Source: an uncultured Actinomycetota bacterium
GTDB taxonomy: Bacteria > Actinomycetota > Acidimicrobiia > Spongiisociales > UBA4744
Direction: 5' to 3'
Length of the DNA: 64,000 bases
NCBI GenBank assembly: GCA_963707435.1
Contig: CAVPPF010000005.1
Location: 390,832-454,831 of the forward strand
The position numbers were made by a program, and so were the translations under genes. Shown piece by piece: positions 25,134-51,083 of this stretch; position 1 is the stretch's first letter, and every line of letters starts with the position of its first letter. The notes below the pieces were generated by a model. That model did not search any database, had not been told where the DNA came from, and saw only the letters and a list, made by a program, of their open reading frames with translations.

Positions 25134-25520
25134 TCAGGCGACGTCCACGAGGTCGTTGACAGCCTTGCGGAACTTGTCCACGTCGAAGGGTTTGGCGAGG
25201 TAGCCATTCGCTCCGGCCAGCCTGGCCCTCTGCAGAGTTTCGGCGTCGTCGCGGGCCGTGACGATCAATACCGGCACGCTCGCCGTGCGCGGTTCGGCAC
25301 GGAGCCGGCCGAGGATGGCCCATCCGTCAACTTCGGGCAGGCCAAGATCGAGCACTACGAGTTCGAAATCATGTGCCGCAATAGCCTCGAGGGCATCGGC
25401 ACCATTCGTGCATACGAGCGGGTTGAATCCTGCCGCGATCAGCATGCGCTCCTGGACCGTCCAGGTCGCCTCGGCATCCTCAACGACCAGGACCTTTCGC
25501 CGGGTTTTCGAATCGACCAT
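25134..25520 (-). CDS. Orphan single-domain response regulator (CheY-like receiver), paralog of 50658..51083
   Basis: KVLVVEDAE...LDLGLP...PVLIVTARDD...LAKPFDVD are REC hallmarks. Confidence 0.7.
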   Translation of the reverse strand: MVDSKTRRKVLVVEDAEATWTVQERMLIAAGFNPLVCTNGADALEAIAAHDFELVVLDLGLPEVDGWAILGRLRAEPRTASVPVLIVTARDDAETLQRARLAGANGYLAKPFDVDKFRKAVNDLVDVA

Positions 25521-25644
25521 GCGAGCCTCAATGGTTCGACAGCAGAGAGGAGGCGAACCTCCCCTCTCCTATGTGTCGACCGTCACGGGCGCAAGCTTGA
25601 CCTATTTCGACCGTCCGTCGGGAACGATTCGGGTCGCGAACCTG

Positions 25645-28600
25645 TCACTGGATCTCGCAGCGCTTGACCGTCTCGCCGTTGGCACAGGTGTCGATCCCGG
25701 GGCCACCGTCGATAAAATCGTTGTTCGCCCCCCGTCGAGCCAGTCGTTGCCCCACTGGCCGTAGAGCTTGTCGTTGCCCTCCTCGCCGGAGATCTCGTCG
25801 TTGCCGAAACCGCCGTAGAGCTTGTCGTTGCCCGGGCCGCCAAACAGGTAGTCGTTTCCGGCCTGGCCGTAGAGCTTGTCGTTACCCTCGTCGCCGAAGA
25901 GGGTGTCGTCTCCGAGCACGCCACCCCACAGTGAGTCATTGCCCGACCCGCCATGCAGTTCATCGGTGCCGGATTCGCCGTACAGCTTGTCGTTACCCTC
26001 GTCACCCCAGAGGATGTCATCACCCTGCAGGCCGGCCCAGATCCGGTCGTTTCCGAACCCGCCGTGCACCTGGTCGTTTCCGGCTCCGGCGTAGATCCTG
26101 TCGTTGCCGGGACCACCGCAGATGATGTCGTTTCCGCCGAAGCCCCACAGGACGTCGTTGCCACCGAGCCCGAAGATAACGTCGTCCCCGGAAGTCCCGT
26201 AGATGACATCCTTCTCGTTGGTGCCCGTGTGCGTAGGAGTCGCGGTTTCACATACGTTGTCGCCGCTTGGCAGAACGGTGTAGTTGACCGACTGCACCGT
26301 GGTTTTGCCGGTGAGATCCGTTGCCGTGACGGTGAAGACCTTCGATCCACTCGAGGAATCAATCGGATCTCCCTGGACAACAGTGCCCACACACGTATCA
26401 ACTCCGGCGCCCGCGTCGGCACAGTCGTATTCCGACGGCACGACCGCGCCCTGGTCGAAGGTCGCCCCTTCGGACGGCGTTATGAAGGTGATGGTCGGTG
26501 CGTCCACGTCAATTGGCACGTAGACGAGGGCCGGTGCCGACCCACCCAGAATCGTTACCTGGTGGACGTCCGTTCCTAGTGAAGCCGGCACCACGATCGT
26601 GCCATTCACCACGGGGCCCTGGTCCACGCCGTTGATCTGATAGGTCAATCCAACCGGCCCTGTTACTGAGATCACCACGTCGCCGCCGTACCATCCACCG
26701 GTTCCGGCAGCAGGCAGATCGATGCCGATGTCTCCGGGTATGTCCGGCTGCGCAACCGGCTGGTAGTTGACGCCCTTGAAAGAGGTCACAGCCAGGTTTC
26801 CATTGTGGTCGACAGCCTGGCAGAACACCTCGACCTGGGTTGGATCCACCGTTCCGACCGAAGCTCCAGACGACCAGATTCCGTTCGCGGATTGGTTGAG
26901 CTCCAAACCAACCCATCCAGCGGCACCAGGCAGGCGGTAGTGACAGGCGGCCCTGGTAACCGTACTTGGCGAGTCGTCGGTGATCGCCGCAGACACGGTG
27001 AAGGTCCCGGCCACGGCCGTCGCCTGCACCGAACTGAAGGTGGGAGGCGTTACATCGGGATCAGCCGGATCGGCGTAGTAGACCGTGAGGTCCGCGGATG
27101 TGATCAGCCGCTCGGTGCCGATCCCTTCGCCGGCCCCGTTCGGCCGGAACTGCCCGCGGATCATGGTCAGCGCGCAGCGTTCCTGGCCAAGAACGTTCGA
27201 ACAGGCAACGTTCTGGACGCGGGCTGGAAAGAAGACGTCACTCGGATTGCTCGGTTCGTTCGCCGCCAGGTCGACCACCGGTCGTCCGAAGGCAATCGGG
27301 ACACCTGCCGTCTCCGAGATCTGGAGGTTCTCGATGAACGCTCCCCGAGGGACAAGACCGGTTGCCGTGGGCGCCAGCGGGATCGTGCTGATTGGCTGGA
27401 TGGGACGATCGTGCACCGTCACGGCTCGTCCGTCGAGCGAGAAGTACTGGCGAGAGCCAACGGTTTCAGAGGTGAAACTGTCACCACCGAACGATGCCGT
27501 GGCCTTCGGTTGGCCCGTCACCGGATCCGGCGTCACAACGGCCGGGGGTGGTCCGGCCGGCGGCGTACCGCCACCCGTCGAGTACATCGGGAACCCGTAC
27601 AGGGTGGCTTCCATCAGGACATGCGCGTCGTAGACGGCCGCCAGACCCAGCTCCAGGTAGTACAGATTCTTGGCAACCGCCAGCGCCTCACCGATGGGGA
27701 GACCCGCCACGAGTTGCTCGGTGAACAGCTCCATGAGTCGTTCTGAGTACGCAACCGTGACGGTGTCGCCAAACCCGAAGCTGGTGTTGCCGACGTAGGA
27801 CGCACCTTCCTGGGCAAACACCTGGGCCCAATCGAGGGCCAGAGGACTGCTGGTTCCGATCGCTACGTCGGAGACGCTCACCCCGGAGTTGCATCCCATC
27901 GTGTAGTACACGCGGCCATTGAGGGAACCGGACAGCGCAACCACGTCGTTGACCGTGAAGAGGTCGGCTTCGATGTTCTGCGCATCCTGATCGGATGGGA
28001 GCGCCCGGTAGTGGTCGTAGTGGGCGTTGACAGATGAGATATCAGGACTCAGGTTCAATCCGTCGATAACGTCCTGCGCGGTCCACAAGCCAGCCGGAAT
28101 GGGATCTCCTTCGGGAATGATGGGATCTAGGAGGGCCGTGTTCGTGCCGCTGGAGGCGGCGCTCAGGTCGTTGTTGACCTCAACCGACCCGTCGTAGAGA
28201 AAGTCGTACCCGGTGACCAGCGTGTCGGCCGTGTCGATATCGAGCGTGCCGTTGTAGGTCTCAAAAGCATCGATCTGGTTGATGATCTCATCCGGCCATT
28301 CGACAACCCGGCCGACCGCAAAGTCCTCAACGAACAGGTGTCCGCTCAGGAACGGGATCGGGTTGAGGTCGGCGTAGGCAGCATCGGTGAGGATGTTGTT
28401 CGTCACCAGGCTCCCGTACAGCGAACCGATGCTCTCATCAAATGTCGGGGCGTAGCTCGACGCCTTGGACAGCTGCACCAGGTCCGGCTCACGCCACATC
28501 GGGACCATCTCGTCGCCGCCGATGATCGTGATGTACCGCAGGTTGGGAGCGTCGGCGCGGACGTCGTCAACAATCGCAGTGATTGCCTTCACGGCCGCGT

Positions 28601-49467: not shown

Positions 49468-50670
49468 GTGAAGGTCACCGCTATCCGACCGCCGCACCTG
49501 CGCACCGCAGACGCTGCAGAAGAGCGCAAGGTCACCTGGACCGAGCTCTTCTACGACCTGGTGTTTGTTGTGGCGGTCGCCGGTCTGGGCGCCAGACTCC
49601 TCGAAGACCCCACCATTCGTGGAGCCGCGGTGTTCACCGGACTGTTTATTCCCGTCTGGTGGGCGTGGGTCGGTTTCACGTTCTATGCCGACCGCTACGA
49701 CACCGACGATCTCGGCCAGCGGATTCTGGCTGTTGCCCAGATGATCACGATCGCCCTTCTGGCCGCCAGCATCAACGGAGACAAGACTCAGTCGCTCGTC
49801 GGTTTCGCGCTCGCCTTCGTGGGAGCGCGGGCCATTCTCATCGTGATGTACCTGCGGGCGCGCCGCCACGTCCCGGAAACCCGCGACCTGGTCACCGGCT
49901 ATCTGCAGGGCATGTCGGTCGCCGTAGTCGTGTGGCTCGTATCGGTGTTCGTTCCCCCACCGTTCCGCTACATCCTCTGGGCCGCAGGACTCCTGATCGA
50001 CTTCTACAACGTCTACCGGGTCCGCCGCATCCAGGCCACCGTGCCGCTCGATGTCGCCCATCTCCCGGAGCGGTTCGGGTTGTTCACCATCCTGGTCCTG
50101 GGCGAGTCGATTGCGGCCGTGGTTGCCGGCCTCGGACATGAGGGCTGGGTAGCGGGACCTGCCGTGACCGCCGTCCTGTCGGTTGTGGTGGCGGCCGGGC
50201 TCTGGTGGGTGTATTTCGACAATCTCGACGGAACCGTCGTCCGGCGCCGGGCCGACCAGAGGAAGGCCTGGAAACCGACCGTCTGGATCTACGGCCACCT
50301 CCCGCTGGCCATCGGTCTGATGGCAACCGCGATCGGTCTGGAAGGGGCCGTCATCGGCGCCGGCGGACACGACTGGCCGGCCAACGAGCGCTGGCTGCTC
50401 ATCGCCGGGGTCGGAGGAGCACTGGTCGGCATGGCCATCATCGAGATTGCCACCGAACGACGGGACAACAACATCTCCCGCCTGAAAGCGCAGTTCCGTG
50501 TGGCGGGTGGACTCGCAAGCGTCATCATCGGCCTCCTGAGCGTTCTCACCGGCGCGCTCGGCACTATGGCATTGCTCGCCTTGCTCTGTGCCGCGCAAGT
50601 GGGTGGAGACGTATGGCTCAATGAGAAGGAATCCGCCAACGCCGCCGGCGTCAACATTCAGGACGACTGA
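49468..50670 (+). CDS. LtrA-family (low temperature requirement A-like) integral membrane protein
   Basis: GTG 49468 is preceded by agaggagg. TWTELFYDLVFVVA N-terminus. About 10 TM helices. Confidence 0.6.
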   Translation: MKVTAIRPPHLRTADAAEERKVTWTELFYDLVFVVAVAGLGARLLEDPTIRGAAVFTGLFIPVWWAWVGFTFYADRYDTDDLGQRILAVAQMITIALLAASINGDKTQSLVGFALAFVGARAILIVMYLRARRHVPETRDLVTGYLQGMSVAVVVWLVSVFVPPPFRYILWAAGLLIDFYNVYRVRRIQATVPLDVAHLPERFGLFTILVLGESIAAVVAGLGHEGWVAGPAVTAVLSVVVAAGLWWVYFDNLDGTVVRRRADQRKAWKPTVWIYGHLPLAIGLMATAIGLEGAVIGAGGHDWPANERWLLIAGVGGALVGMAIIEIATERRDNNISRLKAQFRVAGGLASVIIGLLSVLTGALGTMALLALLCAAQVGGDVWLNEKESANAAGVNIQDD

Positions 50671-51083
50671 GGCTCTCCGGTCTGCTGCCGGGCTCGGGAT
50701 TTCTCAACCAGAGCGATGACCTCGCGGCGGAGGCGATCCACGTCGTACGGTTTAGCCAGGAACGCATCCGGTTTCGTAACCGTCGACAGCTGCTGGGACT
50801 CGGCGCCTTCGTAGGCGGTGACGACCAGCACCGGCAGGTCGGCAGTTCGGGGGTCTTCCCGCAGGCGAGCCAGAACATCCCACCCGTGCATCTTGGGGAG
50901 CCGGATGTCCAGCACGGCGGCATCGAATGATTGCGCCTGAGCGGCTTCAAGTGCGCTCGGCCCATCATCGCAAGCCACCACGTCAAAGCCGATCCGCTCG
51001 AGGCTCAAAACCAGCAAACGGCGAGGGACGGCTTCGTCCTCGACAACCAGAATCTTGCCATACTGCGTTTCGGCGGCCGTCAC
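50658..51083 (-). CDS. Orphan single-domain response regulator (receiver), paralog of 25134..25520
   Basis: KILVVEDE...LDIRLP...PVLVVTAYEG...LAKPYDVD. A GTG start at 51083 after gaaggg is more plausible than the longer ORF reaching 51128. Confidence 0.6.
   Translation of the reverse strand: MTAAETQYGKILVVEDEAVPRRLLVLSLERIGFDVVACDDGPSALEAAQAQSFDAAVLDIRLPKMHGWDVLARLREDPRTADLPVLVVTAYEGAESQQLSTVTKPDAFLAKPYDVDRLRREVIALVEKSRARQQTGEPQSS

Follow-up and report, generated by a model that had tools for sequence, protein, structure and literature searches.

Class III nucleotidyl cyclases that continue into a P-loop STAND NTPase and helical repeats are represented by human ADCY10 and by the mycobacterial proteins Rv0386, Rv1358 and Rv2488c, all of which start with the cyclase domain or domains. 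The mycobacterial proteins end with a LuxR-type DNA-binding domain. Another relevant system is Pil-Chp, which contains a CheA-type kinase and a chemoreceptor, and whose cyclase, CyaB, is a membrane class III enzyme devoid of STAND or TPR segments. In Pseudomonas aeruginosa, Pil-Chp ties the paralogous single-domain receivers PilG and PilH to cyclic AMP (cAMP) synthesis by CyaB and to the control of surface structures (PMC10519157, PMC12129077). We report here on a stretch of 64,000 nucleotides (the window) of an uncultured Acidimicrobiia bacterium (assembly GCA_963707435.1, contig CAVPPF010000005.1, positions 390,832 to 454,831), in which two minus-strand single-domain receivers, RR1 (25134..25520, 128 aa) and RR2 (50658..51083, 141 aa), lie about 26 kb apart. 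A first-pass annotation had placed between them two giant proteins with PLSAI repeats, a STAND cyclase, a metallo-beta-lactamase (MBL)/NTE/PAS/MBL operon and LtrA, and this gene content was found to be correct. It had also taken the block for an island bracketed by the receivers and for one regulatory unit linking phosphorelay and cyclic nucleotides to the giants.

Our preferred reading, which we hold to be reasonably probable, is that the stretch is a vertically inherited part of an Acidimicrobiia chromosome and no island, that it probably does not act as a single regulatory unit, and that it is built in three layers. The first would be a conserved frame, with RR2, LtrA and the MBL operon on one side and RR1, a kinase-aminotransferase pair and an MMPL gene on the other. 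The second would be a fast-evolving slot between the MBL2 gene and RR1, which holds a cyclase plus one or more secreted proteins. The third would be the particular content of the slot in the window, a cyclase subfamily that appears to be constantly paired with a giant, both in Actinomycetota lineages and in Chloroflexota. Comparison of the related loci strongly supports the view that this pair is the only partnership inside the stretch that holds across distant bacteria.

Genes in the window were chosen by third-position GC and named with the help of Pfam and NCBIfam; the labels L001-L094 designate the related loci or contigs with which the window was compared. The cyclase gene (34377..38156, plus strand; Pfam Guanylate_cyc in two stretches, AAA_16 and TPR_12) encodes two tandem class III domains, C1 and C2, for both of which human ADCY10 was the best match among solved structures. 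C1 aligned with C1 of ADCY10 over FVDISGFT and KFGGDA, comprising the metal-binding Asp and the adenine-selecting Lys, and C2 aligned with C2 of ADCY10 over GDAVNLAARV, comprising the Asn/Arg transition-state pair. The cyclase halves are followed by a STAND NTPase (AAA_16, residues 428-608, E 3.8e-20) and by TPR_12 (E 1.2e-29) and TPR_MalT matches (residues 1015-1142). As judged from these alignments, the protein joins a tandem class III cyclase of the soluble adenylyl cyclase (AC) type to STAND NTPase and TPR modules, and it is of the same kind as the soluble AC and the mycobacterial cyclase-ATPase-TPR proteins. It differs from the latter by the absence of the LuxR-type DNA-binding domain, and its subfamily is defined, unlike ADCY10 and the mycobacterial cyclases, by a conserved giant secreted neighbor.

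Giant secreted protein 1 (25602..34095, minus strand, about 2830 aa) stands head to head with the cyclase, and giant secreted protein 2 (38177..44708, minus strand, about 2170 aa) is convergent with it. The two PLSAI proteins are therefore present as first described, but each of them is split by frame breaks. There is a single break in giant 1, near 31565-31594, and the protein is collinear with a single 2807-aa open reading frame (ORF) of L004. There are three in giant 2, which was recovered as four collinear tblastn pieces in three frames and has an 83-91% identical orthologue in L009. Giant 1 comprises, in this order, a signal peptide, beta-helix-like GGGxxN repeats, a choice-of-anchor Q segment, 34 exact copies of PLSAI, a PPC-like region, a conserved core with an invariant His...Gly-Cys, Ig-like domains and RTX repeats. 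Giant 2 is a paralogue with a choice-of-anchor Q segment, 24 exact PLSAI copies, the same core and Ig-like domains of the OmpL47 and Big_13 types.

Members of the family to which both giants belong have a signal peptide, a PPC-like region, Ig-like domains and five-residue repeats in arrays (PLSAI in the window; PVGST, PIAST, PIGSV, PLRSV or GSIGT elsewhere), and their N-terminus is often vWA-like. Its core extends over roughly 600 aa, in which His305 was nearly invariant and Gly347-Cys348 invariant (alignment A1). In an exhaustive search at E <= 1e-30, this core was recovered from at least 1193 cluster representatives, almost all of them proteins 1900-4100 residues long (a word-indexed homologue search gave 11 matches). 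With their signal peptide, Ig-like domains, C-terminal RTX nonapeptides and His...Gly-Cys core, the giants resemble giant RTX or repeat surface proteins and Peptidase_C25, the gingipain family. The L056 homologue scored 31 bits with the Peptidase_C25 profile (positions 46-349 of 374), above the cut-off, and four database homologues of the core carry a precomputed PF01364 annotation. The window copies differ from these systems in that they stay under the C25 cut-off (21.7 bits for giant 2 vs a cut-off of 23; no match for giant 1), and type I secretion genes were not encountered among the genes of the block. To our knowledge, arrays of P-[LIV]-x-S-[IVT] pentapeptides have not been described as a feature of RTX giants or of the Peptidase_C25 family. 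A profile of the core gave no match against solved structures, and a structure model computed from a 10-sequence alignment was too poor for a fold test (pLDDT 47.6).

We scanned species-representative genomes and annotated the 79 cyclase loci obtained with the window proteins. In a neighbor-joining (NJ) tree of 72 cyclases, a giant homologue was found nearby for 15 terminals, all of which fell in one clade; they correspond to metagenome-assembled genomes (MAGs) labeled Acidimicrobiales, Gaiellales/Gaiellaceae and Nitriliruptorales, plus one Chloroflexi MAG. The neighbor was a secreted pentapeptide-repeat protein of 2000-2800 aa in all 15 scorable loci of this clade, mostly in head-to-head orientation to the cyclase, the starts of the two genes being 17-420 bp apart (281 bp in the window), and six clade members that had no giant match offered 3.6 kb or less of upstream sequence. 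Near cyclases of the other clades, no giant homologue was found in any of the about 27 loci that offered 7 kb or more of sequence upstream. Reverse look-up from giant-core homologues led to two contigs, both with an adjacent Guanylate_cyc/AAA_16/TPR gene. Thus, the proposed link between cyclase and giants is strongly supported, by a gene pair conserved throughout a clade and in distant lineages. The window has the giant twice, one copy on either side of the cyclase. No description of a STAND cyclase-giant pairing was found in the literature that we searched. The pair offers a lead on what many Actinomycetota cyclase-ATPase-TPR proteins sense or control, and on what the giants do.

The two contigs reached from giant-core homologues were L093 (7027-17612) and L094 (6338-19420). 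L093 also encodes a 1240-aa hybrid kinase with receiver domains and L094 a cNMP_binding-SnoaL protein.

One may go further and suppose that cyclase and giant form an undescribed, ancient two-gene signaling-surface module, which would here be wired to a phosphorelay through twin receivers acting on the cyclase. In that case, other cyclase subfamilies would carry secreted partners of their own, and the receivers would act like PilG and PilH with CyaB. The other cyclase clades do have their own conserved secreted neighbor, a signal-peptide protein of 430-490 aa, convergent and directly downstream, which suggests a general rule of a STAND cyclase plus a secreted partner. As to the receivers, when all cyclase loci were scanned with a receiver profile, members of the giant-bearing clade had them nearby in a single Gaiellaceae subclade, in L041 and in L093 but not otherwise, and none was found near the cyclase-giant pair in L045, L078, L063, L056, L064, L057, L029 and L047; a general receiver-cyclase linkage was therefore rejected. 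This extended proposal seems to us rather unlikely. Pil-Chp would be the closest functional analogy to the model of the first-pass annotation, but the resemblance is not one of homology: the kinase is here a classical HisKA enzyme, and the receivers have different docking helices.

The 430-490-aa secreted neighbors were located in L088 (3266-4585), L005 (4499-5983) and L090 (8424-9716), with further matches in L080, L050, L077 and L061 and in L079, L042 and L062. In the Gaiellaceae subclade, exemplified by L025 (13921-14463 and neighboring genes; likewise L018, L024, L036, L051 and L055), the pair is followed by a small gene with a hydrophobic N-terminal stretch and then by a receiver in the operon of a large GAF-rich HisKA/HATPase histidine kinase (1300-1420 aa), next to isoleucyl-tRNA synthetase; this kinase type is unlike that of the window.

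The idea of an island was contradicted by composition as well as by gene order. GC content was 0.61-0.65 inside the block and 0.61-0.68 in the rest of the window, and did not change abruptly at either 25.1 kb or 51.1 kb. The only tRNAs of the window are at 18438 and 61265-61452, the nearest being 6.6 kb outside the block; no direct repeats were found to flank the block, and no integrase, transposase or mobility domain turned up among the window proteins scanned with Pfam and NCBIfam. Furthermore, the frame genes occur in all relatives, in the order RR2, LtrA, MBL-(cNMP-patatin)-PAS-MBL, variable slot, RR1, kinase-aminotransferase and MMPL, and they are 60-90% identical among relatives. Only the giants, the lipase and the type of cyclase vary, the giants and the cyclase type doing so in the slot between MBL2 and RR1.

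Versions of this arrangement were found in several genomes. GCA_029863625.1 shows FabH, a small ORF, RR2, LtrA, MBL, PAS, MBL, a 494-aa Ig-like protein, cyclase, RR1, kinase, aminotransferase and MMPL, with about 9.4 kb from RR2 to RR1 and neither giant nor lipase. L005, L007 and L008 have the frame from RR2 to the aminotransferase in about 10 kb, with an Ig protein and a cyclase in the slot, and L090 has the same frame plus the NTE lipase and a cyclase in reversed orientation. The order in GCA_002403855.1 is LtrA, MBL, lipase, PAS, MBL, cyclase (in opposite orientation), a 430-aa protein, RR1, kinase, aminotransferase and MMPL, the last followed by LigD as in the window. L088, whose RR1 is 60% identical, keeps MBL-PAS-MBL, cyclase, RR1, kinase, aminotransferase and MMPL. 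Five loci (L001-L004 and L092) encode large giant-like proteins directly upstream of RR1.

The slot always contains one soluble-AC-type tandem cyclase-STAND-TPR protein plus one or more secreted proteins, and the latter differ in size and family between relatives. The slot cyclases are only 39-55% identical among relatives (90% in one close relative), vs 60-90% for the frame genes; the cassette has either been exchanged for a paralogue or evolved several times faster than its neighbors.

The receivers had been said to delimit the block. They delimit nothing, because gene order runs on past both of them, to FabH beyond RR2 and to kinase-aminotransferase-MMPL beyond RR1 (plus LigD in L090); they also remain in genomes that have no giants (L005/L007, L090 and L088). 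As for inheritance of the block as a unit, both receivers, the kinase, MBL-PAS-MBL, LtrA and a STAND cyclase are indeed kept together in relatives, but there are no discrete edges, the slot contents vary, and the receivers are not tied to the cyclase-giant pair elsewhere.

The paralogy of the two minus-strand receivers was confirmed. They are 44% identical (54/122, E 2e-33), match Response_reg with 84.5 bits (E 7.2e-24) for RR1 and 77 bits (E 1.6e-21) for RR2, vs a cut-off of 30.2, and neither has an output domain. The shared motifs that had been quoted are present (LAKPFDVD and LAKPYDVD; LPxxxGWxxLxRLRxxPRTAxxPVLxVTA), except that three residues, not two, separate LP from GW. Their exact sequences were unmatched in the assembly index, and homologues were used for context instead. 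Homologues were searched among 5.8 billion proteins and the receivers were compared all against all by bit score: each group was the other group's best non-orthologous match, with a median of 99 bits for RR1-group vs RR2-group pairs, the next-best database receivers reaching 79 and 70 bits. The orthologue tier spans 60-95% identity for RR1 and 76-99% for RR2, and beyond it identity is about 45% or less. By this measure, RR1 and RR2 are genuine sister paralogues, which are best explained by an old local duplication, because the closest paralogue lies within 26 kb (9.4 kb in compact relatives).

Both receivers keep the ED acidic pocket, the Asp in VLDL/VLDI and the Thr in VTA (aligned with CheY and Spo0F), as well as an aromatic switch residue, Tyr or Phe, three residues before the Lys of KPF/KPY. 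The phospho-site residues are conserved across 45 RR1-group and 29 RR2-group sequences, and both proteins look phosphorylatable. They belong to the CheY/DivK-type single-domain class, with which they share the lone receiver and all phospho-acceptor residues; database neighbors below the orthologue tier are labeled DivK-like. They differ from CheY and DivK in forming two clades of their own in one Acidimicrobiia lineage, with best outside matches about 45% identical, and in having no chemotaxis or cell-cycle genes nearby.

Thirty-eight alignment positions are fixed within each receiver group yet different between the groups, and they concentrate in helix alpha-1 and on the alpha-4/beta-5 face. 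Helix alpha-1 is the main kinase-docking determinant in two-component specificity. Because the alpha-1 docking helices differ in this group-specific manner, the alignment argues that RR1 and RR2 do not share one phosphodonor. The twin receivers are a small, clean case of kinase-docking surfaces diverging after duplication.

The sensor kinase noted just outside the block is there (23203..24892, plus strand), with a multi-pass N-terminal region, the H-box SHELRTPL and HATPase_c (E 5.9e-20), but it does not form one open frame. Three-frame translation, tblastn and DNA alignment to intact orthologues of 545-562 aa indicated three single-base indels, near 24074, 24088 and 24348, owing to which a brief segment containing a stop is read out of frame and the frame then shifts within the dimerization domain. 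RR1 is tail to tail with the kinase at a distance of 242 bp, and 81 bp downstream of giant 1. It adjoins the kinase in all ten related loci with enough flank, so that the description of both receivers as orphans does not apply to RR1. It does apply to RR2, to which no kinase in the window is closer than the neighbor of RR1, at about 26 kb. In every case RR2 faces LtrA tail to tail, and the 3' ends of the two genes overlap by 13 nt, as they do in L007 and L008. A 20-nt unit (CAGAGCCGAGCCGGAGGGGG), repeated about six times in tandem at 25023-25149, fills the spacer between the stops of the kinase (24892) and RR1 (25134) and reaches a few bases into the 3' end of RR1. A scan of the kinase/RR1/giant 1 junction for sigma-70 promoters and intrinsic terminators found none.

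If the whole stretch were one integrated unit, the kinase would phosphorylate both receivers, these would tune the STAND cyclase by contact, and cAMP would control deployment of the giants through the cyclic nucleotide (cNMP)-binding lipase, the PAS protein and the MBL phosphodiesterases. This is in line with the presence of all components within 10-26 kb in every relative with enough flank, with the constant position of a STAND cyclase beside RR1 whatever its sequence type, with the location of RR1 in giant-bearing relatives, where it follows giant 1 on the same strand after 81-145 bp, and with the precedent of the PilG/PilH twin receivers linked to cAMP synthesis (PMC10519157, PMC12129077). 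On the other hand, gene order continues outside the receivers, and adjacency within one clade is weak evidence. The receivers are unchanged where giants and lipase are absent, and their alpha-1 helices, each conserved within its group, are unlike each other. There are no receivers near the cyclase-giant pair in most other lineages, nor do MBL and PAS genes generally accompany these cyclases: of the 79 loci, only L015 and L078 had MBL matches. As far as can be read from the sequences, only family-level adjacency ties the receivers to the cyclase. We therefore consider an integrated unit unlikely; what survives of it is the cyclase-giant link and the fact that the components travel together, against which stand the lack of a discrete block and the divergence of the receivers in alpha-1.

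The frame breaks raised another possibility, namely that the kinase, MMPL and both giants are real pseudogenes, in which case this genome would be losing both phosphorelay and surface proteins, and the arrangement would be a relic. The breaks, all single-base, number about ten in 25 kb: three in MMPL, three in the kinase, one in giant 1 and three in giant 2. Such a density would fit decay, but the broken genes, indels aside, encode proteins 80-89% identical to intact orthologues, and their stop codons are only those made by the frame shifts. The same genes are similarly fragmented in related contigs named contig_N (L002, L003, L092 and L094), while no frame break affects the cyclase, the lipase, LtrA, the two MBL genes or the two receivers. 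Because the related contigs bear names in the style of long-read assemblers, are fragmented in the same way and otherwise retain this level of identity, the breaks in the kinase, MMPL and both giants are probably long-read assembly noise, and a decaying locus appears quite improbable. Two of the kinase indels adjoin GATC motifs.

The minus-strand operon on the RR2 side of the slot starts with the gene of MBL1, an MBL-fold hydrolase (48497..49327; Lactamase_B_2, E 3.7e-17), followed by a cNMP-binding/NTE P-loop/patatin lipase (46573..48567; cNMP_binding E 8.8e-25, NTE_Ploop 8.7e-31, Patatin 2.2e-33), the true start of which is probably near 48444. Next come a 131-aa PAS-like protein (46110..46505), with matches to PAS_9, PAS_8 and PAS that are all under the Pfam cut-offs, and MBL2, a phosphodiesterase-like MBL-fold hydrolase (45274..46113; Lactamase_B_2, E 1.8e-19). 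The PAS-like protein is the most conserved product of the operon (78-93% identity in relatives). The lipase is present in L009 and L090 and absent in L005/L007/L008 and L088. Over its full length, MBL2 gave equally weak NCBIfam matches to RNase Z (62 bits) and to the cyclic-nucleotide phosphodiesterase family NF041851 (47.5 bits), vs a cut-off of 400 for the latter, so that it falls outside that family. The nearest solved relatives were RNase Z/ElaC for MBL2, and RNase Z and a putative metal-dependent hydrolase for MBL1. Phosphodiesterase-type chemistry is therefore plausible for these enzymes.

The co-occurrence of a cyclase and a cNMP-binding patatin protein in one neighborhood is reminiscent of Pycsar and CBASS. 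The locus might accordingly be an anti-phage module, with an Avs-like STAND/TPR sensor, a cyclase effector and a cNMP-activated patatin phospholipase causing abortive infection, the MBL phosphodiesterases damping the signal and the fast-evolving slot being a defense hot spot. PADLOC gave weak domain matches of the cyclase to PycC (50.8 bits) and of the cNMP domain of the lipase to Pycsar effectors (63.4 bits), the patatin domain matched CBASS phospholipase effectors (NCBIfam CBASS_lipase, 23.7 bits), and both the STAND plus TPR architecture and the much faster divergence of the cyclase compared with neighboring genes would be in keeping with this. Yet these matches reflect generic domain homology, far below family level, and the cyclase is of the soluble-AC tandem type, not PycC. 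Pycsar consists of a PycC cyclase and an adjacent cNMP effector in a compact operon; here, by contrast, there is no adjacent two-gene operon, the lipase being about 8.4 kb from the cyclase with giant 2 and three other genes between, and it is dispensable, since several relatives that keep the cyclase do not have it. Moreover, known defense systems offer no counterpart of the secreted giant that is the cyclase's conserved partner, and no other defense or mobile-element genes were detected among the block proteins scanned. We regard an anti-phage function as very improbable. A survey of NTP-dependent conflict systems has reported cyclases in vWA-MoxR-VMAP systems (eLife 2020, PMC7159879); this assignment was dropped, as the locus has no MoxR or VMAP gene.

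Returning to the layered, vertically inherited neighborhood that we prefer, one may sketch how its parts would work. RR1 would be phosphorylated by the adjacent kinase, its presumed cognate partner. RR2, with its different docking helix and no kinase nearby, would presumably have another phosphodonor and another target, and both receivers would act by protein contacts. The STAND/TPR module would gate cAMP synthesis, and cAMP would act on the local cNMP-binding patatin lipase, where present, and on regulators of the CRP type, which would control the giant gene from the divergent promoter region that it shares with the cyclase. The MBL enzymes, for their part, may act as phosphodiesterases. Seen in this manner, the stretch is a lineage-specific neighborhood of familiar signaling parts, and the conserved cyclase-giant pair is the lead worth keeping.

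A number of observations do not sit well with this reading. The cyclase tree is a quick NJ distance tree that carries no support values, and in L011, a member of the giant-bearing clade, no giant was detected in the 3.6 kb of flank available upstream. RR1 invariably has some cyclase next to it, even one of a different sequence type, which could mean that there is selection for a receiver-cyclase link, and unrelated types of two-component genes adjoin the pair in the Gaiellaceae subclade and L093. The relatives bearing RR1 and RR2 form one family-level clade, whose synteny neither proves nor excludes function, and the frame breaks could reflect real pseudogenization. As regards the mechanism, the lipase cannot be an obligatory cAMP target, because it is missing in some relatives, and sites of the CRP/GlxR type (TGTGA-N6-TCACA, with up to 2 mismatches) gave 12 matches vs 23 expected, with none in the divergent spacer between giant 1 and the cyclase.

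The remaining genes of the conserved frame and its surroundings were as follows. LtrA is a membrane protein on the plus strand (49327..50670; LtrA, E 1.1e-83). A class I/II aminotransferase gene (plus strand, 21863..23134; Aminotran_1_2, E 1.8e-21), kept in all relatives, lies upstream of the kinase in the same direction; its product is 75% identical over 421 aa to the L005 orthologue, which places the true start near 21863. MMPL (21637-19526, minus strand) is in four pieces owing to its three frame breaks. Beyond RR2 are DUF3159 (51209-51892, plus), DUF427 (51896-52345, minus) and FabH (52463-53548, plus). A plus-strand ORF of 305 aa at 45379-46296 was rejected as a gene, as it has no Pfam match and is antisense to the real MBL2; its good third-position GC makes it an example of the spurious long ORFs encountered at high GC. 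A PhdYeFM/ParE toxin-antitoxin pair, of which there was none at the equivalent place among the window proteins scanned, lies a few kb past MMPL in L002 (19025-19569), L005 (17647-18191) and L092 (18449-18993). Finally, the window contains a second set of very large surface proteins outside the block, at 2-10841 and 11693-12715, indicating that giant surface proteins are not special to the bracketed region. The former encodes DUF7507/DUF11/DUF7617 repeats, with over 3700 aa in three ORFs, possibly a single gene split by frame breaks, and the latter is the region of a cadherin/Big_9 protein.

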